Program-made: the position numbers and the translations under genes
Shown: positions 36,101 through 60,959 of the stretch, in pieces
Position numbering within the stretch: the stretch's first letter is position 1
Layout: each line of letters opens with the position of its first letter
Notes under the pieces: generated by a model
Database searches by the model: none
What the model was told of the DNA's origin: nothing
What the model saw: the letters and a program-made list of their open reading frames with translations, nothing else
From: a virus
Lineage: Duplodnaviria; Caudoviricetes
IMG/VR virus record: IMGVR_UViG_3300040801_001355
Coordinates: 11,750-75,749 of that record
Length of the DNA stretch: 64,000 bases
Direction: 5' to 3' (one strand)

Positions 36101-39100
36101 TAACTGATGCGGGCATCAGCTCTCCTCCGTTAACTATAGGCAATGAAACCCGACAAGTTAGTTTACACGAGGGTATCCACGCAACCTTTCATCAACAGGT
36201 TATAGGAGACCCAAGGTTTTCGCTCGATATGGGTGAGGACGCGTTTCTAAAATTGCGCGCACAAAAACATAATGAGTGGAAAGATAGTTTTTTATATGAC
36301 ACTAAATACCCACAAATCTTAGACGACGCTCAACAACAACTCTCAATTGCGCAAAGCCAAAACGCCATGGGGCTTGAGAACCAGGCTGAAATTGATAGAC
36401 TTAAATATATTAATAAGTGGCTTAATTACTCCAAGTCGCAGGGCGGGGATATTGAGGAATTATTTACGGTATCTTTTAGTGACCCCGTTATAACGCAGTG
36501 GCTAAAAGGCAATGGGCATTACGCAGGAATAGAGGATTGGTGGCGTAATAATATTAACGAATTATTGCCACAAGAGATGGCCAACGAGGCTCTTGGCCGT
36601 CGTGTCTTTATGTCAGGCGATTATCTTATGGTAGCCGCAGCCTTAGGACTTGGCTTAGACCCAGAAGATGAGCATGGCAATGACGTTGGATGGTTGCAAG
36701 TTGCTTTATTAGGCGCCGCATTTGGTGGTCGTTTACCTAAAGTTTTAAAGCAAAGGTTTAAGAACGCGTTTAAAAATAACTATGTTCCCGTAGAGATGGA
36801 GTCTAATAATTCTGACGCGCTTAGACGCTTACGCTTAAAAGAAAATTATACTGAACTACCAACAGATGAACAGGCAAAATTAAACAACGAGTTACACAAG
36901 TCAGTTCAAAAAGATATTCAGACCGTCAATTCGTGGATGGATGCGGATAGCTGGAATCCATTGGCTCGTTTATACTCATCAAAGATGGAGAGCGTCCTGA
37001 CAAAATCAGGCGTGCAAGATGGGCGGCACACACTGACGGGACAAGAAAAGCCAATTGGCCCCACGGAATTAGCTATGCGTCGAGAAGAAGGTAGGCAAGC
37101 AGCGTATCAAATGCAAGGCAAAGTTACTGAGGCAGATTTGGAGTGGCGTAATTTTACCACTGATAAAAAGATGCGTGGCGCTGTAATAGATGCCTCGTAT
37201 AATATACATGGTCGCTTAGTTGAAAAAGAGTTACAAGGAGACTGGGACTTTAATGATTTAACTGCCGACCAACAAATGCAAGTTGACTTAATAATTGCCG
37301 ACGAACTTAATAAAGCAGCGAACAAGCACGGCGTTAATAATATAGCTGAACTACAAACCTCTTATGATTTATATCGTAAGTATCAAGATGTGTTGACTGA
37401 GTTTGAAGCTAATGCTGCGACGATGAAAAATTACGGTCAAAGCTACGAAGACTTTAAGACGGAGACTATCGGTGAAACCGCGCCGAATAATATACTTATT
37501 GAACAGCAGCAAACAGCAATTAAGTTGAAGCGCGATGAATTACGTGCTAAAGAAAAAGATTTAGCTAACGTAAAAACTCAAAAAAAGGCGGCTGATAAAT
37601 TAGTTGAAGAGCACGCTAAAAACCCTGCTGACTACACGCCTCAACAAAAGTTACAGGCAAAGCGTATACAATTGGCCGCTGATAAATGGCTTGAAGAAGT
37701 GAAAGAAGAAGTTAAGATTGCACGCGCCCAATTAAATGCGTTGCGCCGAGACCCTGTATATGGTATCGCAAAAGAAAAAAGAAAGTTTGCTAAGATTTTA
37801 TTTAATACGGTAGAAAAACGTTCGCCTAATACACAGTATATTGATAGGCATACAGCGTCACGCCGTAAGAAGCCATACACAATAGTAATATCTGAGATAG
37901 ACCCTGAAACAGGTAAGCTTGTTAAGCCAAGTGAGTCTCGTATCAAATTGATTGAAACATTTGGCACACAAAATCAACAGACAAATTACGAAACTGACGC
38001 AATTGTAGATGGCAAACTACGCTACATTACGCTACCTGATGGGACAAGAGGTCGCGAATACAATGTTGATGGTGAATGGGTTCCAGTGAAGTGGGACCCA
38101 TTTAACGCAACTGAACGTAGGCGCTCAACCCAACAAGCTATCAACGTATCTATCCAACAAGTGTTACGCAACTTAGGGATGGTAGATGGTTCGTTAACTT
38201 CAAAAGATATGGCGGCGCTACATAAGAGCTTATCGACGCTTAGTAATAATATACAAAAGTCCTATGCTCATGGTCTTGATGTTGAGGAATCTGACATAGC
38301 CGCACAAGCAGCTGCGTTAGAAGAGTTACTTGGCCCAGTGTTAGAAACTGGCGTGTTAAATAACTCTGAGTCTATCAACAATATCTTTTATATATTAAAC
38401 CATATTCAAAAATCTACGTTAGGCCGCTCAGTTAAGAGTAAGAATTATCAAACCAAATCTATAGTAGATGGGTACACTGCGAACGATTGGTACAAGTGGC
38501 ATCAAGAGACTTCTGACATTAAGATGAATGTATATGCTAACGACATGATAGATGGCGCTTATGAAGCTGAACTCATGCGACAAATGAATGCACTCGGTGA
38601 TAACGGGTTGACCCGCACGCCTTATTTTGATTGGTTGTTTAGAGAGTATAGTGATGCAAAGTACATAATGTCGCCAACAGCAAACGATAACGCATGGTAT
38701 AAAAATGCCCTGCACAACGGCGTCTCTCTTTTAACAGGAGCAACGCTTGCTTTATCTCCTGGCTCTGCTATACGCAATACTTACCAAGGTATCGTCGGAG
38801 ATATTATGTCGCCTACAGCAGAGGCACGGTCGCGTTGGATAGATGGCTTAGTAAATGAAGCGTCTATGAGAGTGAAGTCAGCTAAGCATACCTTCGATAT
38901 TTATCGCAAGAAAGCAACGGGCAATGTTAGCCAAGCAGAATTAGACCAAGCCTATGAAGACGCAGTAAAAGCAGCGACTTCTACCGACGCTCTATTTACT
39001 GACCCACAATTCCATGACGCAGTTGATGAAGCAGTACTACGTAGAATTATGCAAGTAGGCATAGCGGACGACGACCCGTCGTCTCACTTGCTTGGTTCAA

Positions 39101-40764
39101 AGACTGTGCGAGAAGGCGTGCAAGGTGTGCTCATCTTAACACGTATAACTGATTACGCAAACCGTATGTCTGCTGCGATGATAGGAGCAAGACACTGGAT
39201 GGTTAGCAACCCGTACGACCCGAAGCTACATGGTTCTGTTCAAGATTATATTGAAACCGCGGCTACAATCGGAGGGTTAAAAGCTAACACGGTCAACGGC
39301 CGTTATGGAATTAACGATATGTCTCCTGCTATTAGACCTTTCGCTCGTCATTGGTTACTACGTAATACTCTGACAATGTGGAAGCCCGCTATCAAAGCAA
39401 TGGAAAACTGGAATCGTGCTATCATTAATATCAAACCATTCGCAAAGAGCCGACCACATTTAGGCAAAGCCTTTGCCACGTTAGCCGCCGCACAAGCAGC
39501 CGCGTTATTATTTGGCGGTGTCAAAGCAGCGTACTTATATGGCGATATTAAAAATATATTAGATAACTTTGACGAGTTAGCCGACAACATAGCGAATGAA
39601 GCGGGGGAAATCAAGGAAGGTTTTTCTGAGAAATTGTGGAACGAGATATATGCCGCGGCTAAAAAGCACGGCATCTCTAAAGATTATGTAGACGCAGCTC
39701 GCTTAACGTTTGAATACGGCGCACTATCAGCGTGGTTTAATGTCAACTTAGCAGCTGACGAAACCTTGGGTGGATATGCAGAGCCGTTTAATTTAAGTAA
39801 AATGGTGCGCATTATAGACGCTGCATGGGAGGGCATCGACAAGAGTGAAGAGAACGCAATTTTAAACGGGCTATTTAAAGCTGGGCTGGAAGCAGCAGGT
39901 GGTCGCGTTAAAGGTTTTTATAATGGTATAGTCCAAATACAAGATGGTTATCATCAAACTAAAAATGGCGACAGAATTACAGAGGCTTTCTTGACTGAGG
40001 ACGGCAAGGTAGAGGCAAGATACGTACCATATACCATGCAAGACTTGCTCGCAGAAGTTTTCTTTGGCAATCAACTGAAAGAAACAGACGCCAATATGCG
40101 TAGTTACTTAGACGAAAACCCATTATATACTTTGGAACAGAAGGTTGCATACGCAAATAAAATACTTAATGCGTCGGGTATCAAGATGGCTGGTTCATCA
40201 GACACAGAATTGAAGCGTGAGTTTATTAAGAAGAGTGGTATCATCCACCACATAGAAGACGTACGCGCCAAAATCTTAGATAAATTTGAAGAGGCCGCGC
40301 CTAAGATTAAAGCGTCACGCATCAAACTCAGCGAGTGGTTCGATAGCGAGGAGGGCCGCGCAACACTCATGGGTCAGAACGACCAGATGGGGCCAGCGAC
40401 TAACAGAGAAATGCAGCAAATCAAAAGCGCCTTATACAACGACGTCAACGCCTTTTACATTGACAAGATAGTAGCCGACGCGTTGAATGAAGTGGTACAG
40501 GAAAATGGATTACGCGAAAAATTTACAAATAGAATAAATGTACCTAAAGGTCAACCGCTATTTACTTATTTGTTTACAAGCAATCAATTGGCTATTTCAG
40601 AAACAGCGTTTTATGACGAGATAAAAAGTGGTGGCGGAGATATTAAGAAAACATTAGAAAAATATTATCAGTCAGAATATGGTGGCTTTGATTACGTCGT
40701 TGCTAAAACAAAAGCAAAGCTAAAACAAAAGCAATATAAAATAGAACGATTAGGAATAGATTAA
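33199..40764 (+). CDS. Giant internal virion/ejection protein with zincin HExxH motif
   Basis: 2521 aa; A/G/T-rich membrane-like segment near the N-terminus, HEGIH at nt 36166-36180, coiled coils and a hydrophobic helical C-terminal third. Confidence 0.65.
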   Translation: MSINSNYQALQPTSWLEEEREKEKKRRDSIRQTEEYRSIYGGDSLAAPPTPSMDLTGGADEGPSWLNPRPQDQVRQRRASVFDIIKNTQSVFNPDAKPLGYGTESVEMNNIRRLAADGQITITDNGDIFRNYLDDDGNVQRETIPTHYVDTNEGKVKPYSYTDEDKKEWWELAPKLITHTNPLTAPIAMGLDAITKSTTGQIDAEQFETKARQETPKQLDDEASLNTAVEHFMVNPVEKVADAFMSIGTTGRQQGDVDLFKSGEGSKYNTYQAVGAIANDVTTALTAGVVATVATGGVATTALASAIPSIRATWHDVASGKMTTTGGVEQTLIDVTTSWGGLKVAKALGPASRAGRQAITKAAEAGYNPFLTAYKNGMRYVIAPNAINFGVDAAGGAATAAINISQTQDVNLQDAEQQKAIALQALLEGGLGLSLGIIMDAVDVGKISRSIKNNKANTPPVPEDRSVKEKLDDLRRQQNADKDDGNLDANIRDAVAQRLIWEPNLTYDPDAIATSLINDFNIQPSKHGLLVEHVTHAMEAQKLLANIKSSADAKLGLADEPIAQYVTDEVVATASAIKPNSKVLKNSDFVATEQLLSGKEPTEELQRQSFRELNNMSNLMYGRGIAADNAGDLLSDMDSFSKGAVPSNYIPPSNSYYGQAFDQLNTVEGLDETVSQGALELMARGEVSQLLNQQFDVLQEIGLSAEDAGDILKHAYLGLDKDMPNSADFFDTINKAIQKDGELRTLVDIDNKLSDHIDDNHELYDIYGDNLLRIVQREPGLSFVQTPDPATEAAIQVEPTPAESQVLDEATTKIVNDNVDAMSPEAKEDVATNLKNLESDKVGGEDAAKETTDFLSGSPKREENVAKYEAAQNDASNQAEETTNRHNLTQNRDNKMMQLWNDWVNKRRTKKFWGAFGKDLEIDDDSEGAWDYTFGRDITGVFEPTANWPYGLVAIRTKNASNIKFPTLTDAGISSPPLTIGNETRQVSLHEGIHATFHQQVIGDPRFSLDMGEDAFLKLRAQKHNEWKDSFLYDTKYPQILDDAQQQLSIAQSQNAMGLENQAEIDRLKYINKWLNYSKSQGGDIEELFTVSFSDPVITQWLKGNGHYAGIEDWWRNNINELLPQEMANEALGRRVFMSGDYLMVAAALGLGLDPEDEHGNDVGWLQVALLGAAFGGRLPKVLKQRFKNAFKNNYVPVEMESNNSDALRRLRLKENYTELPTDEQAKLNNELHKSVQKDIQTVNSWMDADSWNPLARLYSSKMESVLTKSGVQDGRHTLTGQEKPIGPTELAMRREEGRQAAYQMQGKVTEADLEWRNFTTDKKMRGAVIDASYNIHGRLVEKELQGDWDFNDLTADQQMQVDLIIADELNKAANKHGVNNIAELQTSYDLYRKYQDVLTEFEANAATMKNYGQSYEDFKTETIGETAPNNILIEQQQTAIKLKRDELRAKEKDLANVKTQKKAADKLVEEHAKNPADYTPQQKLQAKRIQLAADKWLEEVKEEVKIARAQLNALRRDPVYGIAKEKRKFAKILFNTVEKRSPNTQYIDRHTASRRKKPYTIVISEIDPETGKLVKPSESRIKLIETFGTQNQQTNYETDAIVDGKLRYITLPDGTRGREYNVDGEWVPVKWDPFNATERRRSTQQAINVSIQQVLRNLGMVDGSLTSKDMAALHKSLSTLSNNIQKSYAHGLDVEESDIAAQAAALEELLGPVLETGVLNNSESINNIFYILNHIQKSTLGRSVKSKNYQTKSIVDGYTANDWYKWHQETSDIKMNVYANDMIDGAYEAELMRQMNALGDNGLTRTPYFDWLFREYSDAKYIMSPTANDNAWYKNALHNGVSLLTGATLALSPGSAIRNTYQGIVGDIMSPTAEARSRWIDGLVNEASMRVKSAKHTFDIYRKKATGNVSQAELDQAYEDAVKAATSTDALFTDPQFHDAVDEAVLRRIMQVGIADDDPSSHLLGSKTVREGVQGVLILTRITDYANRMSAAMIGARHWMVSNPYDPKLHGSVQDYIETAATIGGLKANTVNGRYGINDMSPAIRPFARHWLLRNTLTMWKPAIKAMENWNRAIINIKPFAKSRPHLGKAFATLAAAQAAALLFGGVKAAYLYGDIKNILDNFDELADNIANEAGEIKEGFSEKLWNEIYAAAKKHGISKDYVDAARLTFEYGALSAWFNVNLAADETLGGYAEPFNLSKMVRIIDAAWEGIDKSEENAILNGLFKAGLEAAGGRVKGFYNGIVQIQDGYHQTKNGDRITEAFLTEDGKVEARYVPYTMQDLLAEVFFGNQLKETDANMRSYLDENPLYTLEQKVAYANKILNASGIKMAGSSDTELKREFIKKSGIIHHIEDVRAKILDKFEEAAPKIKASRIKLSEWFDSEEGRATLMGQNDQMGPATNREMQQIKSALYNDVNAFYIDKIVADALNEVVQENGLREKFTNRINVPKGQPLFTYLFTSNQLAISETAFYDEIKSGGGDIKKTLEKYYQSEYGGFDYVVAKTKAKLKQKQYKIERLGID

Positions 40765-42110: not shown

Positions 42111-42351
42111 TATCAAGTTAATAGTGTCGCCGCCATTTATGAATATAACAATTCAATCACCTGGTCGCACTATTACGTTAAGCAATGCAGAAGATAAGCC
42201 GTTTGAAAGGACGGTTAAAATATTACAAGACTTAATCTATACATCGTGCAGACGCGCAACACCGCACGCCCGCAACAGACTGTATGTACGCACCATCAAT
42301 GAATTAAAATCAATGGAATCCTATCGTAAGAGGCGATGGCGGAACAAATAA
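42100..42351 (+). CDS. Hypothetical protein
   Basis: 83 aa, AGGAG RBS; last plus-strand gene, its 3' end overlaps the convergent HTH gene. Confidence 0.45.
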   Translation: MEINIKLIVSPPFMNITIQSPGRTITLSNAEDKPFERTVKILQDLIYTSCRRATPHARNRLYVRTINELKSMESYRKRRWRNK

Positions 42352-42618
42352 ATTATACTCAGCCTCTATTAATTTAATAATAAACCTACGTGCTTTAACG
42401 TAGGCTTTGCCGCCTTTGTCCATTATTAATAAGTCCCAATAGACTTCAGGTATTGATAAGTGTTGTAGTATTTTTTCTTTATCGAACGGCATTATATTTG
42501 TACGCCCATTCTCTAAGTTTCTGTATCTATGTGGACTCATATGTATTTTATGAGCCATATCTTGCGGCGTCAAATTACATTGACGTCGTAAATATTGTAA
42601 AATCTCTGACTCTTTCAT
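42310..42618 (-). CDS. XRE-family HTH transcriptional regulator
   Basis: LQYLRRQCNLTPQDMAHKIHMSPHRYRNLENG; AGGAG RBS. Confidence 0.8.
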   Translation of the reverse strand: MKESEILQYLRRQCNLTPQDMAHKIHMSPHRYRNLENGRTNIMPFDKEKILQHLSIPEVYWDLLIMDKGGKAYVKARRFIIKLIEAEYNLFVPPSPLTIGFH

Positions 42619-42688
42619 TTCAATCTCCTGTTTAAGTTTCGTGTAACCACCAGATAAACAAAATACTACGTTATTGCATCAAGCAAGC

Positions 42689-43327
42689 CTACTTGCTTGG
42701 GTCGTTTTGTCTTTGTATTCCCATAGCCGTTTCAAGTATCGTTCTGCCAGCTTCGTAATCAACCAAGTTTCGAGCGATTTTATCCGTTCTTTGATTGCCT
42801 TTGTATTTGTAAAAATCAAATTCGTGAAATGCACACCACTTACTTACTTCATCTTTGCCCCCCATTATTGGGGATTTACGCTCATTCAAATTAGTAGGTA
42901 AATTAAAATTAGTCCAATACAGGTGTCTGCCTCGCTTTGTAGCAGGTATTAATGGCTCGTAATAGGGCGTTACATTCTCAACCACATATTTGCCATCAAA
43001 CCACTTATCCAAGAATATAATTTCTTGATAAAGTTTCATATCAGGATACGTACTTTCTGTTGTATTTCTTCTTGCAAATCTCGCTCGGCTATGTGTCGAG
43101 CAAGGTGGAGAACTCCATATAAAATCAAAGTCTTTATAATTATCCAATAGGTATTGGTGTGCATCAGCAACTATTACCGTATCATTAGGAAATCGCTCTT
43201 GGTATAATTTTGCCAGCTCTGTATCAAGTTCAACGGCTATTACTTCAATGTTATCCGCAACTTCATCCCACTTGTAACGGTTCCCGCCCAAGCAAGCATA
43301 AAGATTTAATATTCTGTATTTCTTCAT
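42689..43327 (-). CDS. C5-cytosine DNA methyltransferase (short phage type)
   Basis: ILNLYACLGGN (motif I variant), WSSPPCS (IV) and VVENV (VI). Confidence 0.85.
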   Translation of the reverse strand: MKKYRILNLYACLGGNRYKWDEVADNIEVIAVELDTELAKLYQERFPNDTVIVADAHQYLLDNYKDFDFIWSSPPCSTHSRARFARRNTTESTYPDMKLYQEIIFLDKWFDGKYVVENVTPYYEPLIPATKRGRHLYWTNFNLPTNLNERKSPIMGGKDEVSKWCAFHEFDFYKYKGNQRTDKIARNLVDYEAGRTILETAMGIQRQNDPSK

Positions 43328-43674: not shown

Positions 43675-43693
43675 CGCTCAATCTCCTCCTAAT

Positions 43694-43718
43694 AAAAAGC
43701 CACGCTGTTAACGTGGCT
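43694..43718 (-). terminator. Intrinsic terminator-like hairpin
   Basis: Minus strand AGCCACG-TTAACAG-CGTGGCT followed by T run. Confidence 0.5.
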
Positions 43719-43727
43719 ATATTTTTT

Positions 43728-51948: not shown

Positions 51949-54001
51949 TATTGACCTCCATTAAATTTAGTTGTCCTTGTGCGTTAGTTTTTGTGTATCC
52001 TTTTACAAAATACTTTATATCGTCGTGTATTATTTCGCCCCAATCGTATTTAACTCCGCTTTTGTGTCCTAATTCAAAGTGCTCCATGAAAGAACCGTCT
52101 ATTAAAGAGTGAAGCGGGACAAATTTAACGACTTCAAATATCCTGTCGTCATCGTATGCCAGGGCTTTAATAGGCACGTCAAGCGTTAAAAATTCTGACT
52201 GTGTAAAACCCCAAGGTTCAGAGGGCTTACGCACTAAGCATAATTTGCCACTTCTATATTGCAAGTAGCCGCTTTCAATCATACCTGTAATGTCAAGCGT
52301 ATGATATTTATGCGCATAACATTCCACGTAGTCAGTCCAACTATCTACATCGGGGATGGCATAAGATTCGTTCATACACGAATTTTCCTCAACTATGAGA
52401 ACTCCTCTATCCGCATGAAGACTAAAAGCCGACGGCTTCACACACAAGTACTTTTTATTGGTTGCACGATAACCATATAAATCTGGCTCGTCGTTTACAG
52501 GCACATAATCTGACCCCACTATGCTTCCTGTGCTCTCTATTACGTCAATAGATTTATAATCGTCGTCGTTTACATCAATATAATCTTTAATTATATCACT
52601 ATATACTATATCTTCGTGATGTATGTCGACCTGCGAATCGTAAGTTTGAGAGTAAACAGCGTCATCTTCTGCAACATATGAATCGTGATATTCTGACCAT
52701 GCGTAGTCTGAAAGATGTATATATCGTGCCCTTCCATCATCATACACAATGTCGTAATCTTCAATATGATAATATTCATCTTGCTCTTCGATGTATACCG
52801 CTTCGTCGTCGGGGACGTATTCTCCAAGATTCGGGATATATACACGATCGCCACAGTCATCGGCTGAAAAATGCGTCGGGCCGCCGTTATCTCTGTAATG
52901 GTGCTTGTCATTATCGCCGCCTAACAGAAGTTGGTCATAATATCTGTTAGATATATCGGCATATTTATTTGGCAATGACTCGTATTCTATAGCGTCAATA
53001 CCATCCCAACTATCTATGTATGGGACTAATTCATCTTTATCTTTAACTAACACAGTAACCGTGCACCCAGAACTTTCCGCGTCAAAAACATCTTTATATA
53101 TCGTCGCATTTGGGTACATTTCTTTTAATTCGTCAGCCACTTGCACGACAAAAGCATAGTCGTATGTTGTGCGTGATGAGTATGGTTTTGCGATAATAAG
53201 CTCGTCTTTATCTTCGTTATCTGTGACAAAAACTAATGACCGTGCTAATATATTATCGTTCTCATCTTTGCCGTATGCTATATGCACGTTATTAAGAATC
53301 TGCGAACTGAACGCATACGTATTAGTTAAAGCTACCCTGCCATCTCTATCCCGCGCCATACATGACGTAGGTTTAGCGTCGTTATAAATATCTACGACAT
53401 TTTGGTTGCATGGCATAACTTGGATATGCAGTTTACCATATTTGCGTTTGTGGTAATCAGCAATACTTTTTAAAGCCGCCGTTAAATAAGTTGCCGCCTT
53501 CTTGCGTATAGGCTTAAGTAATGACGAATAAGTTATTATGGAATCCATTATTTTACTACCATTATCTTGGGGTTCAATTCTACGCTCTTTATTACGTAAC
53601 CTACGACTATTGTTCATCGGGAAATTCCAGTGCATACGCTTATTCTCGCTGTCCCAACAACAGTACCTATATAACATCATTCTGCCGTCTCTCTTTATCG
53701 TATACTTTGTTTCAACAAGATGTAGGCTATTCTTAACCATAGCTTTAATCGGGATTAAGTTGTCTTCTTCCCACGTATCAGCCATCTTTAAGCCCCATAT
53801 TTGACCTTTGTAATGAACTACGTAAAAATTGACGCTATTCATAAGTTCGTCAATTGCCTCGCGATTGTTGTTGGGGTTATCAAAAATATTTAACGCATTT
53901 AGTTGTTTTAACGCGTCTGGACACGCTTCTCTTTGGGAGTCGGCAGTAAACGGTTCTTGATGTCGAAAGAAATCGTCCCCGCTTATATAACTGTAATACA
54001 T
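51935..54001 (-). CDS. SC(M/L)-domain protein, paralogue 3, with D/Y-rich repeats
   Basis: KPTSCMA..TYAFSS..NVHIAY..ILARSL..KPYS..VPYIDS; AGGAGG upstream of ATG 54001. Confidence 0.6.
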   Translation of the reverse strand: MYYSYISGDDFFRHQEPFTADSQREACPDALKQLNALNIFDNPNNNREAIDELMNSVNFYVVHYKGQIWGLKMADTWEEDNLIPIKAMVKNSLHLVETKYTIKRDGRMMLYRYCCWDSENKRMHWNFPMNNSRRLRNKERRIEPQDNGSKIMDSIITYSSLLKPIRKKAATYLTAALKSIADYHKRKYGKLHIQVMPCNQNVVDIYNDAKPTSCMARDRDGRVALTNTYAFSSQILNNVHIAYGKDENDNILARSLVFVTDNEDKDELIIAKPYSSRTTYDYAFVVQVADELKEMYPNATIYKDVFDAESSGCTVTVLVKDKDELVPYIDSWDGIDAIEYESLPNKYADISNRYYDQLLLGGDNDKHHYRDNGGPTHFSADDCGDRVYIPNLGEYVPDDEAVYIEEQDEYYHIEDYDIVYDDGRARYIHLSDYAWSEYHDSYVAEDDAVYSQTYDSQVDIHHEDIVYSDIIKDYIDVNDDDYKSIDVIESTGSIVGSDYVPVNDEPDLYGYRATNKKYLCVKPSAFSLHADRGVLIVEENSCMNESYAIPDVDSWTDYVECYAHKYHTLDITGMIESGYLQYRSGKLCLVRKPSEPWGFTQSEFLTLDVPIKALAYDDDRIFEVVKFVPLHSLIDGSFMEHFELGHKSGVKYDWGEIIHDDIKYFVKGYTKTNAQGQLNLMEVNNAAA

Positions 54002-54020
54002 TTTGCCTCCTATAAAATTA

Positions 54021-54055
54021 AAAATAAAAGGGCGACGCACTCATAATACGTCGCC
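54021..54055 (-). terminator. Terminator-like hairpin
   Basis: GGCGACG-N11-CGTCGCC (54031-54055) followed on the minus strand by CTTTTATTTT. Confidence 0.5.
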
Positions 54056-54061
54056 ATATAT

Positions 54062-54718
54062 TTACTTCGCATCAATATTTACTGTATCGATATTAATAAC
54101 GATATGAGGTGTGCCTGTGCTGTTGCCACGTGACAATAAGAGTGATAAAAAATCGCCAAGAGACACATTTAAAGCGTCTTGTGTATCATTATCATCTTCT
54201 ACCACTTCTTCTGTCGTCGTATCTTCTGTCGTTGCGTCCTGCGCGTCTTGCGTGTCGTTAACTCCGCTGTTGAGTTCTATTAACGCGCCGTCAAAATAAC
54301 TCATAAGTTCGGTTACGTTGTTTTGGAATACGTCGTCATCATATTCGTCATCTATGTCGATTGGATAATAATCCTTAAAATACGACTTAGAACTACGATT
54401 TGCAGCACAAATATCCCACAAATCTCTATCTGTTTCGATAGTTTTGTCAGATGATTCAGAGTAATTCCCGACGTTATATTTGATACGAGATACTTTCCAT
54501 TTGCCATCGTCTGTTTTAGACTTAGCAATACGTGCGTAAATATCCGCCAAATCCAACGATTCTTCTAACGTTTTATTCAACGCTAACTGAAACACCGCTA
54601 TACGTAGTAGTATTTCGTTTACTTCTTCTTGCGTCATTACTCGCTGGGCATCTCCCAATGCGTTTGTAAATGTCTCTGTCGCTTCTTGGCGACTTCTTTC
54701 TACTAATTGACGTATCAT
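54062..54718 (-). CDS. Hypothetical acidic early protein
   Basis: 218 aa, GAGGAGG RBS. Confidence 0.55.
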   Translation of the reverse strand: MIRQLVERSRQEATETFTNALGDAQRVMTQEEVNEILLRIAVFQLALNKTLEESLDLADIYARIAKSKTDDGKWKVSRIKYNVGNYSESSDKTIETDRDLWDICAANRSSKSYFKDYYPIDIDDEYDDDVFQNNVTELMSYFDGALIELNSGVNDTQDAQDATTEDTTTEEVVEDDNDTQDALNVSLGDFLSLLLSRGNSTGTPHIVINIDTVNIDAK

Positions 54719-54773
54719 TACGTCCTCCTCTAATTAATTATTAAAAATAACCACGCATCTTACGTGGCACGTT

Positions 54774-54797
54774 AGAACCTCGCCTTAACGAGGCTCT
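54774..54797 (-). promoter_or_regulatory. UUAAGG-loop stem-loop, copy 1
   Basis: RNA AGAGCCUCG-UUAAGG-CGAGGUUCU, 9 bp with one G-U. Confidence 0.85.
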
Positions 54798-54828
54798 CAC
54801 GATTAAAGTATAAAATGTATATAATGTT

Positions 54829-55011
54829 CTACGTATTTTGTACGTTATCCTCTAACTCGTCTAATTTGCCGATAAACTCAGACGTCATCTTAAGACGTAC
54901 CTGTGCTTCGTGGCAGCCAGGGTAATCTTCGTCGTCTAATGATAAGTGTAAATCATTATCGTATAAATTGAGTTTCTCAAGATAATATTTACGTAATTCT
55001 TTTATCGTCAT
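54829..55011 (-). CDS. Small early protein
   Basis: 60 aa, GGAGGATTT-ATG leader. Confidence 0.55.
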   Translation of the reverse strand: MTIKELRKYYLEKLNLYDNDLHLSLDDEDYPGCHEAQVRLKMTSEFIGKLDELEDNVQNT

Positions 55012-55022
55012 AAATCCTCCGA

Positions 55023-55403
55023 TTAATTTAATCTCATTTCAAATTCGCTGTCATTTTTATCTAATTCTTTTTCGACAGAGCTATACGTTTTTTCCATGAC
55101 TGTTTTTATGGCGTGCAAAAATAACAAAAGTCCCTCATCATAATGGATGACGTCAATATCGTCGTCGGTTTTAATACTGTCCTCAAAAAACTCGCTTTCT
55201 ACGCCAATGCCTAACTGAAATTCAGACGACACTATTGGATTGTCAAAATTACCTTGAAATATAACCGTTTCGTCAGCCTTATCAAGTATAAAACGTAAGC
55301 TTATAGTTGTAAATTCGTTTGGTGTCACAGTATACATTGCGTCTGACTTAAAGTCATCCGTACATGAGCCGTTTGTATATTTGTCAAAATCAATCTGCTT
55401 CAT
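55023..55403 (-). CDS. Acidic early protein
   Basis: 126 aa, ATGA-coupled to the upstream 53-aa ORF. Confidence 0.55.
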   Translation of the reverse strand: MKQIDFDKYTNGSCTDDFKSDAMYTVTPNEFTTISLRFILDKADETVIFQGNFDNPIVSSEFQLGIGVESEFFEDSIKTDDDIDVIHYDEGLLLFLHAIKTVMEKTYSSVEKELDKNDSEFEMRLN

Positions 55404-55561
55404 CGTTGTCTCCGATATGTGTTTTTATTAATTAATTCTTTGTCGTAAGCATCGAACTCGTTGTAAGTCCGACCGCTCCATATGCCCTTGATACGTGCGG
55501 AAGCTACTACTGCATGACGCAGTGCTACGATAGCCACTCCACATATTAAAAATGTTGTCAT
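55400..55561 (-). CDS. 53-aa early peptide with hydrophobic N-terminus (not in ORF track)
   Basis: MTTFLICGVAIVALRHAVVASARIKGIWSGRTYNEFDAYDKELINKNTYRRQR; preceded by the conserved CTTATAGGAGGATTT leader; TGA overlaps the next ATG. Confidence 0.7.
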   Translation of the reverse strand: MTTFLICGVAIVALRHAVVASARIKGIWSGRTYNEFDAYDKELINKNTYRRQR

Positions 55562-55611
55562 AAATCCTCCTATAAGTATTAAAATTAACGTAGCATTTTA
55601 CTACGTACGAC

Positions 55612-55635
55612 AAGACGTTGCCTTAACAACGCCTT
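55612..55635 (-). promoter_or_regulatory. UUAAGG-loop stem-loop, copy 2
   Basis: RNA AAGGCGUUG-UUAAGG-CAACGUCUU, 9 bp with one G-U. Confidence 0.85.
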
Positions 55636-55640
55636 AGCGA

Positions 55641-55826
55641 TTAATCGTCTTCTGCGTATAATAGTGTGTCAAGTAAAATCAGCCCGTCCATAATTGCAAC
55701 AATCAGTACGTATGAAAACCTCTGACCTTGCGTCCATAACATGGGATTAATAATGCCGAGTATGAATACCCAACACGCAAACGCAATAATTGGTATAGCT
55801 ATCAGTGTTATTATACGTTTTTTCAT
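55641..55826 (-). CDS. Two-TM small membrane protein
   Basis: 61 aa with two hydrophobic helices; ends AEDD. Confidence 0.6.
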   Translation of the reverse strand: MKKRIITLIAIPIIAFACWVFILGIINPMLWTQGQRFSYVLIVAIMDGLILLDTLLYAEDD

Positions 55827-56170
55827 ACGACCCCCAAAGATTCTAATATTGTTTGCGACGATACAGGCATCTCGTTTATATAAACCTTCCCTTCAAACGG
55901 GAAATATTCGCCATGTGAACCAGGCGTCGCTATATACCAATCAAAATCTTTTTGGTACACGTGGACACTTGCTAAGTGGTTTATGCGATTTTTTGTCGCA
56001 GTTGTCACAAAACCTCCGTGTTGCACATATACCCCTCGTTCGTCACGACCTATAATGTCAGTCCAATAATACGTTATTGTCTTGCCATCTGTTCTGTCGT
56101 TTTTTATCGTTTTACTTTCGCCGTTATACCATGCGTCTAAAACTTTTGAAAATCCATCTAAGCGTCTCAT
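55823..56170 (-). CDS. Conserved-type phage early protein
   Basis: GGFVTTATKNRIN..VYQKDFDWY pattern resembling small early proteins seen in other phages; ATGA-coupled. Confidence 0.6.
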   Translation of the reverse strand: MRRLDGFSKVLDAWYNGESKTIKNDRTDGKTITYYWTDIIGRDERGVYVQHGGFVTTATKNRINHLASVHVYQKDFDWYIATPGSHGEYFPFEGKVYINEMPVSSQTILESLGVV

Positions 56171-56511
56171 ATTACGTTCTCCAAAATATCTTCTACATCG
56201 TTATCTAAACACGCTATTACCGTAAATAATTTGTAATTCAATTCTAACTCGTCTTTTATGTGCTGCATAAGTGCGGGGACTTCATCGTCATCTAACACTT
56301 CTATCGTGCTAATGATGTGTGCGTTTATATTCTTTGGGTCTTTTGCGTTATATATCGACCCGCCTTCTCTGTTGTATAAGCGGTAACGTGTAACACACAC
56401 ACTTACCGTTTCAACGTCTTTAACAAAAGAATTGATTGTGTGTTGAATATTATCCAAGCATTCTTCCGCTTCTTTTAACGATGTGATTTCACACCTTAAT
56501 ATTACGTTCAT
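56167..56511 (-). CDS. Early protein
   Basis: 114 aa, CTTATAGGAGGATTT leader. Confidence 0.6.
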   Translation of the reverse strand: MNVILRCEITSLKEAEECLDNIQHTINSFVKDVETVSVCVTRYRLYNREGGSIYNAKDPKNINAHIISTIEVLDDDEVPALMQHIKDELELNYKLFTVIACLDNDVEDILENVI

Positions 56512-56529
56512 AAATCCTCCTATAAGTTG

Positions 56530-56811
56530 TTATATGACTTTAAATTTTTTGTCTGAATTATCGACAAATCGTATCATGTCGTATTCTGACGTAAAGTAGT
56601 AATTCTCGTTATTTATCGCATTTTCAAAGTCTGCAATAGACTTAAAAATACGTCCGTTAGCATCTGCGTATTCAAAAAGCTCCTCGTCACTCGCACTAAT
56701 GAGACGGTTGTCCCACGTGCAAACTATAACGATAACCCGTCCGCCTATTAACTCGCTCACTCTACGTGAACGTTCTCTTTCTTCTATTATGTCTGCGTCA
56801 AATTGTGACAT
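56530..56811 (-). CDS. Early protein
   Basis: 93 aa, CTTATAGGAGGACGTT leader. Confidence 0.6.
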   Translation of the reverse strand: MSQFDADIIEERERSRRVSELIGGRVIVIVCTWDNRLISASDEELFEYADANGRIFKSIADFENAINNENYYFTSEYDMIRFVDNSDKKFKVI

Positions 56812-56863
56812 AACGTCCTCCTATAAGTTAATTAATAACACGTGCCACCATCGACACGCACAC

Positions 56864-56889
56864 AACAACACCGCCTTAACGGTGCTGTT
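56864..56889 (-). promoter_or_regulatory. UUAAGG-loop stem-loop, copy 3
   Basis: RNA AACAGCACCG-UUAAGG-CGGUGUUGUU, 10 bp with one G-U. Confidence 0.85.
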
Positions 56890-56906
56890 ATTATTTATTA
56901 ATCGTC

Positions 56907-57347
56907 TTAATCGTCTTCGCCCGCAATAATAATATATTTGTCGTCCGATACTTTAACCGTCATTGCAGCACCACGTGTCCACCCTTGGACGTAATCAGGG
57001 ATTATATGTATGACGTCGTCAATATCTTCAAATTCCATTGAAACGACAGAATCATTAGTTATTATAAGCGTGTCCATTTGATATGGATATATCGCATAAA
57101 TGACTTCACTCTCTTTTAAACGAGGGTCATTTAATATCTCCTGGATACGTGTTTTCAATGTGTCGTGGAAACGCAAACGCTCAGGGATTACCGCTGCATA
57201 GTTGGCGGTATAAACGCCGTCGCCTAATAGATACACTTTACGTGTGTCGCCAAGCTCTTCTTTAACTTTTGCAAAACTGTCGACCACGTCTTGTGGTTGC
57301 TCTGTGTTAAAGGCTGTCTCAAACCTTCTTGCTTTTATAGCACTCAT
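56907..57347 (-). CDS. Early protein
   Basis: 146 aa, CTTATAGGAGGATTT leader; ends GEDD. Confidence 0.6.
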   Translation of the reverse strand: MSAIKARRFETAFNTEQPQDVVDSFAKVKEELGDTRKVYLLGDGVYTANYAAVIPERLRFHDTLKTRIQEILNDPRLKESEVIYAIYPYQMDTLIITNDSVVSMEFEDIDDVIHIIPDYVQGWTRGAAMTVKVSDDKYIIIAGEDD

Positions 57348-57355
57348 AAATCCTC

Positions 57356-57505
57356 CTATAAGATGTTACGAAGACGATACACTATGTATGCGTCTAAAAT
57401 AAATACGCCTATTATATATGTATAGGCAATAACGTGTGACCACTCTATTATAAGAGCAGCCACGATATTCAAGATTAACGTTATAATTAACTTGCGTTGT
57501 GTCAT
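57356..57505 (-). CDS. 49-aa two-TM peptide (not in ORF track)
   Basis: MTQRKLIITLILNIVAALIIEWSHVIAYTYIIGVFILDAYIVYRLRNIL; ATG overlaps the upstream TGA, and its TAG lies in the next RBS leader. Confidence 0.65.
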   Translation of the reverse strand: MTQRKLIITLILNIVAALIIEWSHVIAYTYIIGVFILDAYIVYRLRNIL

Positions 57506-57792
57506 TCTTCTTCTCCTCGTAATAATAAACTTAAATTTAAACTGTCTTCTTCTTCGTATAATTTAACAGTAAATTTAGCGGCGTCGTCAATTAGTTCACA
57601 AGCGTCTTCTATATTAACGGCGATAGTAGACGCAAAATCATCGTCATCTATTAAATAGACTACGCTTGTATTGTTACCAAGTGTCAGTGACGTTATCATT
57701 ATGTTGTCCTCAAATAACGTTAGCTCTGCAACTACTTTTTGAAACTTCATAATTGCAGTGCGTGAACCCGTAAAATGTGAGTATAAATACAT
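57502..57792 (-). CDS. Early protein
   Basis: 96 aa, GAGGAGG RBS. Confidence 0.6.
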   Translation of the reverse strand: MYLYSHFTGSRTAIMKFQKVVAELTLFEDNIMITSLTLGNNTSVVYLIDDDDFASTIAVNIEDACELIDDAAKFTVKLYEEEDSLNLSLLLRGEEE

Positions 57793-57826
57793 ATCGTCCT
57801 CCTCGTATAAGTGAAAAAAAAATATC

Positions 57827-57860
57827 TAACGTGTGATAAGCCTTAACTTATCATACGTCA
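57827..57860 (-). promoter_or_regulatory. UUAAGG-loop stem-loop, copy 4 (long stem)
   Basis: RNA UGACGUAUGAUAAG-UUAAGG-CUUAUCACACGUUA, then GAUA and a U-run. Confidence 0.8.
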
Positions 57861-57970
57861 AACACCCTATCCACTCGGCATAACGAACCAAAATTTCTTT
57901 TATATTACTACGTCAAAACTCTACGTTGTCAATTGCCGTATCGACTCGGCATTATAGTAGATATAACCAC

Positions 57971-58014
57971 AAAAAATCCTACCCAACACGTTTTTACACG
58001 TGCTAAATAGGATT
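57971..58014 (-). terminator. Terminator-like hairpin after the two AT-rich first genes
   Basis: AATCCTA...TAGGATT outer stem with inner CACGT/ACGTG, then a T run on the minus strand. Confidence 0.45.
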
Positions 58015-58019
58015 AAATA

Positions 58020-58346
58020 TCAATCTTTTGTTTGTCTTTTTCCTCGCTTTCTTTGTTTTTGTGCACTTTTAAACAGATTTAATATTGACTTGTCAATCTT
58101 TCCGTTTTTATCGGAGCTTAAATAATTAGACAAATCAACGTTACTATTAAATTTTACGTTGTCATTGTCAGTAATAACCGTGTTAATTTCATCGATAATT
58201 TTATTATCAATTAATCTTACCGTTAATTTGTTACTGTCAATCGTAACGTAAATTTTAATGTTTAAACTCTTTGCAACTTGCATATAAGATAAAAGGGAGC
58301 TTTTCAGCTCCCTTTCTATCTTGTTTTTTAGCAACGTTAATAACAT
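58020..58346 (-). CDS. AT-rich hypothetical early protein
   Basis: 108 aa, TAATG-coupled. Confidence 0.55.
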   Translation of the reverse strand: MLLTLLKNKIERELKSSLLSYMQVAKSLNIKIYVTIDSNKLTVRLIDNKIIDEINTVITDNDNVKFNSNVDLSNYLSSDKNGKIDKSILNLFKSAQKQRKRGKRQTKD

Positions 58347-58978
58347 TATTCTGTTTCACTTGGATAAGTGAGTACACTCTCATCACTATAAGTGATTTCA
58401 AGCCCATTTAAATTAAGCAAGTCTAAAAATTTACTTTTTGTATCACTTGAAAGTTTGTTATCAATAACGTTTGTTGTGCTAATACCTTCAATGTTTTTAC
58501 GTATATATTCGATAGGTGTTTGACTGCTTAATTCAATGTTATTCGGTTCAAAGTATCGTTTAATCCACATATCATTTAAAGTGCCAAACTCAATCAATTG
58601 ATTGTTTTTATCAGTTGCAATAATCGACGTCGGTTTTTTGACGTCAGATTTTGACTTACGAGCATAAAATTTAAACTCATTCGCATCGTTGCGAGCAAAC
58701 GTAAAATCATTAGGTAAAAACTCAAGGGTTTCAGCATCTAAGAGACTAATTAATTTGTCAAGAAACTTTTTGTTAGCACGTTCACGTGCTTTTTTCTTGA
58801 TTTCTTTCTTATTCTCTTTTAACGTGTCATCAATACGTTGTAAGTCATCAATATTGATTTTTCCACTTTTAAGAGCGTCTAACATTGCGTTAATGTCAAA
58901 ACTCTTTTCCTGGTCATTACCGTTATTATTATTAATAACGTTTTCTTTGCTTGTGTGTGTTTTTTGGAAATTTTCCAT
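58346..58978 (-). CDS. AT-rich hypothetical early protein (K/N/D-rich, coiled coil)
   Basis: Likely start is ATG 58978 (MENFQK...), inside the TTG-started 228-aa track ORF. Confidence 0.55.
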   Translation of the reverse strand: MENFQKTHTSKENVINNNNGNDQEKSFDINAMLDALKSGKINIDDLQRIDDTLKENKKEIKKKARERANKKFLDKLISLLDAETLEFLPNDFTFARNDANEFKFYARKSKSDVKKPTSIIATDKNNQLIEFGTLNDMWIKRYFEPNNIELSSQTPIEYIRKNIEGISTTNVIDNKLSSDTKSKFLDLLNLNGLEITYSDESVLTYPSETE

Positions 58979-59039
58979 TTTTAAACTCTTGTAAGAAGTT
59001 GAACAAAATATTATATTTATACCTGGTAACAAGTTAACA

Positions 59040-59057
59040 CAGTCAATAAATTGACTG
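59040..59057. promoter_or_regulatory. Perfect inverted repeat, operator-like
   Basis: CAGTCAAT-AA-ATTGACTG; contains TTGACT on both strands, upstream of the leftward operon. Confidence 0.45.
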
Positions 59058-59430
59058 CATACGCTTTAAACGTGTTGCTGTCAGGTATCAATTAAATTGT
59101 CAAAGAACTATTTTTTAATATACAATTAATATGCCAAAAAAGCATTTTTAACTGTCTTATAAAGAAACTGTTTTAATTTCCTTATAAGGCAATTAAACTG
59201 CCTTATTTTTAAGCATAACATATATTAAAATATACGTCATACCAACTCTTGCACGTTTCAAACCAAATTAATATATATAATTCTCATTTTCCTATCAAAT
59301 ACCATGCCAAATGATTAGAGTGTCAAGTTTATTACACAGTATTACGTAGAATAGATGTAACTTGCTAAGTATCAATGAGTTAGTTCTTGTGTCAGATATA
59401 TTTCACACTGTCAGATTAATTACACACAAT

Positions 59431-59570
59431 CTATATTGCTATGCAGTAATATTGCTCTTCGGTAATATACTATATTGCTATGCAGTAATATTGCTATGCA
59501 GTAATACGGTGGGGGGTCATGCAACATTATCACATCAAGCACCCACAAACTATATTGCTATACAGTAATA
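59431..59570. repeat. Four copies of the imperfect palindrome TATTGCTAT(G/A)CAGTAATA
   Basis: Copies start at 59434, 59473, 59489 and 59553; 26-mer CTATATTGCTATGCAGTAATATTGCT is identical at 59431 and 59470. Confidence 0.85.
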
Positions 59571-59597
59571 TAACGATGTAGTAAAACTACTACAACC

Positions 59598-59617
59598 TTG
59601 TAGTAATATTACTACAA
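59598..59617. repeat. 20-bp perfect palindrome
   Basis: TTGTAGTAAT-ATTACTACAA. Confidence 0.9.
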
Positions 59618-59711
59618 TGACAAGTTTACTTTACATTATGACAAGTTGACATGACATTATGACAAGTTGACATGACAGAGGGACGTGACAAAATGACAGA
59701 GGGGCATGACA
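59618..59711 (+). repeat. TGACA iteron-like cluster
   Basis: Ten TGACA in 94 bp, including a 21-bp tandem duplication ACATTATGACAAGTTGACATG (59633-59674). Confidence 0.85.
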
Positions 59712-60013
59712 AAACGGCAGGAGGAGGATCATTTTCTATTAATGGAAAGGGAGGGGTAGCTCACATTCCTGGGCTGAGGCTGCGGGGGGATACCCCATTC
59801 ACCCAAAATTAGTAAAATTTAGATTTTGGCATGAAAATTGCAGGACTTCAAAAAGAATCATAACAGACCCCCGTCCCCCTTTTATATATAAGGAGAAAAG
59901 CTTGGCAGGGGGTAGTACCCTAAAAAGTTTTTTTTGGGAAAAATTACCAACAAAACTCATCGTCGCCTACAAAATGTGTGGGCGTATTATAAATAAAACC
60001 ACAGGAGTATTAC

Positions 60014-60569: not shown

Positions 60570-60959
60570 ATGGCATTAGCACAGAGCTACGACATAGCGG
60601 ACGAGATAATAACTCTCGTCTGCAATGTCTCAGGACTAAGTAAGAGCGAGTTGTTAGGCAGAGATGGGCATAACGAATATGCGGTGCCACGAGCACTATC
60701 CGTCTATATGACATACACTTACACCTTACTAACTTACGCAGAAATCGGGAGGTTATATGACAACAGAACTCATCCATCATTATTAAGCATGATAGAAACG
60801 GGGCGGGTGTATGTAATGCAACAGCCACATATAACACATATATACAATGGGTTAGTAAAAAAGTTAAAAGACAAATTTGAATTAGGCGACTTCCAAGGTT
60901 ACGTGTTTCCAGAAGAACGACACGCTGCTCGAGAAGCCGAGTTAAGGAGGGGAGAGTGA
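60570..60959 (+). CDS. Stand-alone DnaA domain IV (DnaA C-terminal HTH)-like protein
   Basis: IITLVCNVSGLSKSELLGRDGHNEYAVPRALSVYM..LTYAEIGRLYDNRTHPSLL parallels DnaA ..R.IAMYL...SL.EIG..FGGRDHTTV. Confidence 0.8.
   Translation: MALAQSYDIADEIITLVCNVSGLSKSELLGRDGHNEYAVPRALSVYMTYTYTLLTYAEIGRLYDNRTHPSLLSMIETGRVYVMQQPHITHIYNGLVKKLKDKFELGDFQGYVFPEERHAAREAELRRGE

Follow-up and report, generated by a model that had tools for sequence, protein, structure and literature searches.

Why does a single phage operon carry four small intergenic hairpins that end in the same loop on stems of different sequence? This question is raised by the early region of an uncultured tailed phage (Caudoviricetes), represented by IMG/VR record IMGVR_UViG_3300040801_001355. 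The window analysed here is a 64-kb stretch of a longer contig; all coordinates are window positions, and the sense strand of the early operon is the minus strand. The element in question is referred to as hairpin A, and its copies as s1 to s4. An initial annotation of the DNA described four intergenic hairpins on the minus strand with a common G-UUAAGG-C core, and suggested that a protein recognises them in the RNA.

A family of four loop-conserved hairpins

The octamer GTTAAGGC has four matches in the window when either strand is searched, and all are on the minus (sense) strand (54782-54789, 55620-55627, 56873-56880 and 57840-57847). Each match forms the tip of a hairpin of 9-13 base pairs (bp); the four hairpins of the initial annotation are all present (Table 1). 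Aligned without gaps over 30 nucleotides (nt) and centred on the loop, the copies share a 9-bp helix in which 97% of cells are paired. The loop is constant in all four copies, and the closing G-C pair is the sole invariant stem pair; seven of the nine stem pairs show double-sided (compensatory) change (n = 4 copies). The shared core with differing but still paired stems is thus borne out.

The sixth pair varies on one side only, being G.U in s2-s4 and G-C in s1. The GC...GU frame with this wobble is kept in s2-s4, the three copies for which the wobble had been described. The s1 stem consists of a 7-bp upper part, then an A.C mismatch (two pairs further out than pair six), then four further pairs. 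RNAfold adds a U.G pair inside the loop, which leaves a UAAG tetraloop.

The number of octamers on its own is not significant (4 vs 1.9 expected); the signal therefore lies in the context and not in the 8-mer count. The observed covariation of the stems was matched in none of 500 column shuffles. Among all window hairpins with a 6-nt loop and no fewer than 7 bp in the stem, this combination of loop and closing pair is found four times; in 200 dinucleotide-preserving shuffles, no combination recurred more than twice. The four copies were used to build a covariance model, as had been suggested, and this separates the members (31.6-36.9 bits) from the next-best matches in the window (16.9 and 15.8 bits). 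Two independent sources of contigs for this sample, JGI and Logan, show no differences at any of the four sites; consequently, the sites are not assembly artefacts. The family of four loop-conserved hairpins is confirmed as real and non-random.

A shorter relative had also been proposed at 42680-42699. A hairpin does exist there over the stop codon of the methyltransferase gene, but at 7.3 bits it scores below about 25 random window matches and is not a member of the family. Hairpins at 42379-42410 and 43693-43723 were rejected as members as well; they have only the loop-initial UUAA in common with hairpin A (17 and 16 bits). The hairpin over the methyltransferase stop (42679-42700) is a perfect 8-bp hairpin which is terminator-like on the plus strand, while 42379-42410 is a 10-bp hairpin with the loop UUAAAGCA within an XRE-type open reading frame (ORF; 42310-42618). 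Both are located in the convergence zone of the late (plus) and early (minus) operons.

The hexamer TTAAGG is under-represented in the window (14 vs 37 in dinucleotide shuffles). This deficit was rejected as a signal (z = -1.2 in a maximal-order Markov model); it is explained by avoidance of CTTAAG and of palindromes.

No Rfam covariance model matches the whole window at gathering thresholds. With E-values up to 10, the region 54600-58100 gives two chance-level matches only, neither at the hairpins, and a literature search for UUAAGG hairpins returned nothing relevant. The motif is undescribed, in agreement with the initial annotation; its class is familiar and includes nut sites, the processing sites of T7 and SP82, and PeSLs.

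Since UUAA is self-complementary, the loops could in principle pair with a trans-acting RNA (as an antisense target) or with one another (as UUAA:UUAA kissing loops). This is hardly probable at all: four base pairs are a weak pairing, and the complement of the loop is found nowhere else in the window outside the hairpins. An antisense partner was rejected on the latter ground, there being no other CCTTAAC or GCCTTAAC in the window.

An intergenic cassette in the early unit

Minus-strand genes span approximately 59.0 to 42.3 kb. The hairpin-bearing early unit (approximately 57.96 to 54.03 kb, minus strand) contains 11 small, mostly acidic genes without assigned function. Hairpin A fills all four gaps of at least 79 nt between 58.02 and 54.72 kb; the remaining gaps are at most 18 nt long or are overlaps. 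Each hairpin belongs to an aligned cassette of approximately 85 nt, in the order hairpin A, weak terminator-like hairpin B, AU-rich tail and strong ribosome-binding site. The four junctions align end to end with 71% column identity, and the cassettes split the early unit into four translationally coupled gene groups. This structure, in which A is followed by B or by a run of nine U, an AU-rich tail and a ribosome-binding site, is new beyond the initial annotation.

In s2-s4, hairpin B starts 5-6 nt after A and is called terminator-like by a consensus scan; B3 and B4 have the apex GUAA-R-AUGC in common. B is missing from the leader copy s1, where A instead caps a helix of approximately 22 bp that runs into the nine U. 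This extended hairpin looks like a leader terminator or attenuator. Hairpin A itself was rejected as an intrinsic terminator, as no U-tract directly follows it in s2-s4; U-tracts occur only at the extended s1 hairpin and at the separate B hairpins.

The distance from A to the next start codon is 52-68 nt, while the distance to the preceding stop codon is 5-31 nt; s1 lies in a leader without an upstream gene. From the steadier start distance, the variable stop distance and the leader copy, hairpin A appears to be tied to the sequence downstream of it.

Terminator T2 forms a fifth junction, with the same AU-rich tail and ribosome-binding site followed by the ATG at 54001; it has no hairpin A. 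The operon runs on for 12 kb through T2 and T3. Because a ribosome-binding site directly follows each of these terminators and leaves no room for a promoter, the genes beyond them need read-through.

Table 1. Hairpins, terminators and repeats of the early region (window positions)
Feature	Position	Strand	Description
Hairpin A, copy s1	57829..57858	(-)	Operon leader; loop G-UUAAGG-C; 31.6 bits with the family covariance model
Hairpin A, copy s2	56862..56891	(-)	13 bp including G.U wobble; 36.4 bits
Hairpin A, copy s3	55609..55638	(-)	34.8 bits
Hairpin A, copy s4	54771..54800	(-)	36.9 bits
Extended s1 hairpin (~22 bp, A at tip) and U9 tract	57814..57868; U9 57814-57822	(-)	-21.5 kcal/mol; z = -5.2 for the 91-nt leader
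Hairpin B2, AU-rich tail	56838..56861	(-)	Terminator-like, weak
Hairpin B3, tail UUAAUUUUAAU	55588..55606	(-)	Terminator-like, weak
Hairpin B4, tail UUAUUUUUAAU	54750..54768	(-)	Terminator-like
Canonical terminator T1	57975..58014	(-)	Closes upstream two-gene operon; upstream limit of the hairpin-bearing unit
Canonical terminator T2 (11 bp), tail CUUUUAUUUUU	54031..54055	(-)	Ends early unit
Canonical terminator T3	43718-43698	(-)	Ribosome-binding site directly after
Two 25-nt direct repeats ATGCCGAGTnGATAnGGnnnTTGAC (ATGCCGAGTnGATAnGG...TTGAC)	57857-57881, 57928-57952	(-)	71 nt apart, between T1 and s1

Cassettes of this kind could be passive. They would then be structural or insulating hairpins in duplicated modules, similar to PeSLs, which serve as recombination points for small early genes, with descent or stability, and not a reader, preserving the loop. 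Passive cassettes account for the alignment of whole junctions, for the ribosome-binding leaders common to them, and for the extension of the similarity into the last codons of two upstream genes; two further sense-strand hairpins with a loop-initial UUAA also fit. In s1, a -35-like and a -10-like hexamer (the weak pair TTGACG-17-TATCAC) flank the hairpin, as in many PeSLs (PMC2839356). The PeSL cassettes of T4-type phages (PMC2839356, PMC4122927) are composite intergenic repeats of approximately 100 bp, which combine a stem-loop with a Shine-Dalgarno sequence between small orphan early genes, and in which the similarity likewise covers the entire junction. In contrast to the cassettes described here, PeSLs have a strong sigma-70 promoter and conserved GC-rich stems; three of the four present copies have no promoter (consensus scan and inspection of s2-s4 found no sigma-70-type site), and the stems are variable. 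Moreover, eight tip positions are invariant in four copies while nearly all stem positions have turned over, which is not expected from drift or gene conversion. The gene groups are not surrounded by inverted repeats, and the loops of the other terminators of this phage differ from the loop of hairpin A. A passive role is quite improbable. Integron-like cassettes were rejected, as no inverted repeats wrap the cassettes.

Several sequence features accompany the junctions. The 12-nt repeat AAGACGATTAAT (55640-55651, 56897-56917) covers the last codons (...EDD) and the stop of the two genes that precede s3 and s2; its tandem duplication at s2 may point to recombination or duplication events at the junctions. 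Five early genes have a common extended start block, CTTATAGGAGGA(t/c)(t/g)tATG (55562-55577, 56512-56527, 56812-56826, 57348-57363 and 57793-57811), while genes outside the early unit use another, GGAGATTGA(G/A)AAATG (e.g. 42619, 43675, 60975 and 61200). The tetramer ACGT is three times denser at 54000-60000 (27 per 2 kb) than elsewhere in the window (approximately 8 per 2 kb). Its density peaks at the four junctions (27 per kb), and the tetramer is a frequent component of stems in T1 and the B hairpins.

Folding of the transcribed strand

Because of G.U pairs, s2-s4, B2-B4 and the extended s1 helix fold more stably on the sense strand than on the antisense strand, by 2-7 kcal/mol. The short s1 core is the only element that favours the antisense strand. 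In every full junction context, the closing pair of hairpin A has a pairing probability of approximately 1.0. Sense-strand stability and pairing within the junctions both support selection on the transcribed strand, for which the initial annotation had argued, and support the view that hairpin A works as RNA. Hairpin B folds irrespective of A, so that the two are not mutually exclusive. A RAT-type switch between A and B was therefore rejected, and a processive signal of the nut type is favoured over it.

A signal in the DNA is also conceivable. The hairpins sit ahead of groups of small early genes, and the late operon ends with the gene for a giant protein of 2521 amino acids (aa); hairpin promoters for a phage polymerase, as in N4, were among the options in the initial annotation, and another DNA-level signal for a phage polymerase or nuclease would be similar. 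The P1-P3 hairpin promoters of N4 have a stem of 5-7 bp and a 3-nt loop. The geometry differs here (stems of 9-13 bp, 6-nt loop), and no fixed start motif is found downstream of the hairpins. In addition, neither the 2521-aa protein nor any other ORF of at least 150 aa in the window, which is only part of the contig, has an RNA polymerase motif (two-barrel or T7-type) or an RNA polymerase match in Pfam, PDB or PHROG. The N4-like option is not upheld, and a DNA-level signal of any kind is very improbable. The loop was further rejected as a -35 or -10 element, since no consistent partner hexamer lies at 16-18 nt across the four copies.

The ORF of the 2521-aa protein (33199-40764) has no Pfam or PDB match. 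Its neighbours in the ESM Atlas, taken only as a lead, are clusters with the polyvalent-protein domains LPD38/LPD39, and the product may be a multi-domain protein that is injected.

A read-through signal as the proposed function

Hairpin A may be an RNA signal of the nut/boxB kind, read by a protein and acting on the adjacent attenuators; the probability of this reading is put at roughly 0.35. Every copy either overlies a terminator-like hairpin with a U-rich tail or precedes one by 5-6 nt. This position, together with the lack of promoter room at T2 and T3, is why a nut/boxB-like function is favoured. The proposed reader would contact the helix at two points on one face, namely the G.U wobble and, five pairs above it, the invariant G-UUAAGG-C tip. 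Its binding would change the behaviour of RNA polymerase at the attenuator just downstream, presumably towards antitermination, with a possible further effect at the strong terminators T2 and T3. Early and delayed-early expression would then be timed or graded by read-through.

Where a loop and a helix irregularity are conserved while the rest of the stem varies freely, the pattern is typical of recognition by one protein that binds one face of an RNA helix. The invariant loop, closing pair and wobble appear to fit such recognition, which was the reading that the initial annotation gave to a fixed loop on free stems. The architecture resembles that of iron-responsive elements and MS2-type operators, in which a conserved loop and a helix irregularity five pairs below it are carried by a free stem; sequences, organisms and functions are unrelated, and the likeness is an analogy of design, not homology. 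The UUAAGG hexaloop with its fixed G.U wobble may be the site of a new RNA-binding protein, of the phage early region or of the host, which would drive a new system of either antitermination or RNA cleavage.

Comparison with lambda nut and N shows similarities in arrangement. In both cases a small RNA hairpin is found in the leader and between genes just upstream of terminators, within a long early operon with internal terminators that have to be read through; the lambda hairpin has a loop-specific reader. Unlike boxB, which is a GNRA-like pentaloop on a 5-bp stem, hairpin A has a stem of 9-13 bp and a UUAAGG hexaloop, or a UAAG tetraloop on U.G. Membership of the lambda type was rejected on loop and stem length, although the position upstream of terminators is shared. 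In ANTAR targets, two hexaloop hairpins stand in tandem, the second of which overlaps a terminator, and each loop begins with A and has G as its fourth nucleotide. This class was rejected too: the loop of hairpin A begins with U and has A as its fourth nucleotide, the loops of B comprise 3-6 nt, A and B do not compete, and there is no Rfam match.

A number of observations weigh against antitermination. The departure of the loop from a GNRA-like pentaloop is one, and another is the presence of four copies in one operon, in which hairpin A differs from lambda nut; four sites are unnecessary for processive antitermination. Lambda-type nut sites have a linear boxA a few nucleotides upstream of the hairpin. 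The boxA-like similarity upstream of hairpin A is weak and confined to one copy; by eye only, CUUUAAUCG can be picked out at s4 and GAUUAAUCG at s3, AT-rich sequences which overlap stop codons and which s1 does not share. Neither an Arg-rich, N-like protein nor any other recognisable RNA-binding protein is found among the early genes, for which Pfam and the Atlas gave nothing usable as a reader. The sole basic candidate is a 108-aa protein (58020-58346; isoelectric point 9.9) with a Lys/Arg-rich tail, which has no informative match. B2 and B3 are weak, and about half of the consensus terminators are expected by chance (28 found vs 12.9 expected). Were transcription to start from the TTGACG-17-TATCAC pair, s1 would lie outside the RNA. 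Finally, support for function is limited to one genome, with no relatives, RNA runs or variants found.

Processing or stabilisation of the early RNA is the other function to be weighed. An endoribonuclease of host or phage would cut the early RNA into four segments at hairpin A, or the hairpin would shield RNA ends. The layout resembles that of the T7 early operon, with tandem promoter-like elements, a leader site, further sites in all of the long gaps and a closing terminator. Like the sites of the T7 early region (R0.3-R1.3) and the Bs-RNase III sites of SP82, the hairpins would belong to a host-transcribed early operon, and they are structurally related to one another. Hairpins that are stable and lack a U-tract would be suited to the protection of ends, and the extended s1 helix (approximately 22 bp with a mismatch) is RNase III-like. 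In SP82, a single cut is made per site, within a stem that has internal loops (PMC1935012).

The helices of T7 and SP82 are longer and have internal loops, and their apical loop is not the conserved part; in contrast, the tip of hairpin A is invariant, and three of its copies are too short. RNase III sites have about two helical turns of double-stranded RNA, usually with an internal loop. With only 10-13 bp and no internal loop, s2-s4 do not qualify as such sites; s1 has approximately 22 bp with a mismatch. Bacterial RNase III is not known to read apical loops, so that an invariant loop would need a different enzyme, and no nuclease is recognised among the early genes. Processing also leaves the U9 run of s1 and the U-rich tails of the B hairpins unexplained. 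It is a close rival of the read-through signal, and only slightly less likely.

A candidate promoter region of the unit

Both 25-nt direct repeats between T1 and s1 end in a -35-like TTGAC. A perfect TATAAT is located at 57951-57956 (minus strand), and the repeats lie downstream of it. The early unit may have its tandem promoters or operators in the repeats, which together with the TATAAT make up its candidate promoter/operator region; a canonical sigma-70 pair was not found in the repeat region (57857-57952).

Further upstream, the divergent region between two early operons (59033-59700) contains dense direct repeats, with TGTCAT-type units and several copies of ATTACTGCATAGCAATAT. A 129-aa protein encoded near this array (60570-60959) has a DnaA C-terminal helix-turn-helix (Pfam PF08299, E = 1e-10). 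The array is probably a replication origin or an operator field.

An orphan phage from a microbial mat

No DNA relatives, close or distant, were found among deposited phages, where the portal and the peptidase have only remote protein matches. Protein-guided searches of IMG/VR for loci with the 701-aa, 452-aa and 218-aa proteins returned none. The 115-aa early protein and the 701-aa protein encoded beside the hairpin region, the latter also in its 267-aa form, matched only the phage itself in collections of 1.8 and 5.8 billion proteins; the contigs behind these self-matches are short contigs of the same phage (99.95-100% identity).

Five motif scans of IMG/VR, JGI metagenomes and GTDB genomes looked for the hairpin with a ribosome-binding site, with the AU-rich tail and with TATAGGAGG. 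Paired stems were about as frequent among the matches as expected by chance, and multiple paired copies were seen at no locus; otherwise the same phage was recovered. Three DNA runs of one microbial-mat sample are the only sequencing runs in which the sequence occurs, and no RNA run with it is listed; their low-depth contigs are identical and so offer no variants in which compensation could be seen. The phage is an uncultured orphan without relatives in the collections searched.

Two further observations concern the 701-aa ORF. The ATG at 54001, which follows T2, is the true start rather than the GTG at 54040. In a JGI contig of the same phage, a one-base difference at window position 53238 (L011 position 984) introduces a stop, giving a 267-aa ORF followed by a gene of approximately 380 aa; because of this difference, the ORF is either a read-through variant or two genes.

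Short palindromes are nearly absent from the window: GATC occurs 4 times (181 expected), CTAG 3 times (121 expected) and CCGG not at all (59 expected). Depletion is also seen in 6-bp palindromes (observed/expected), namely ATGCAT (0/29), GATATC (6/49), GAGCTC (0/16), TCATGA (0/16), GGTACC (0/14), TTCGAA (0/10) and CTTAAG (4/20). This looks like heavy avoidance of restriction sites. Enzymes that cut several of the depleted sites were originally discovered in filamentous cyanobacteria; an origin in a microbial mat would be consistent with this.

Implications

With four copies in one genome, the hairpin family is a well-defined hypothesis rather than a discovery. If a dedicated protein does read the hairpin, the two would constitute a compact new pair of RNA and protein recognition partners. 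They would also represent a new means of timing phage early genes, in a lineage which shares almost nothing with cultured phages.

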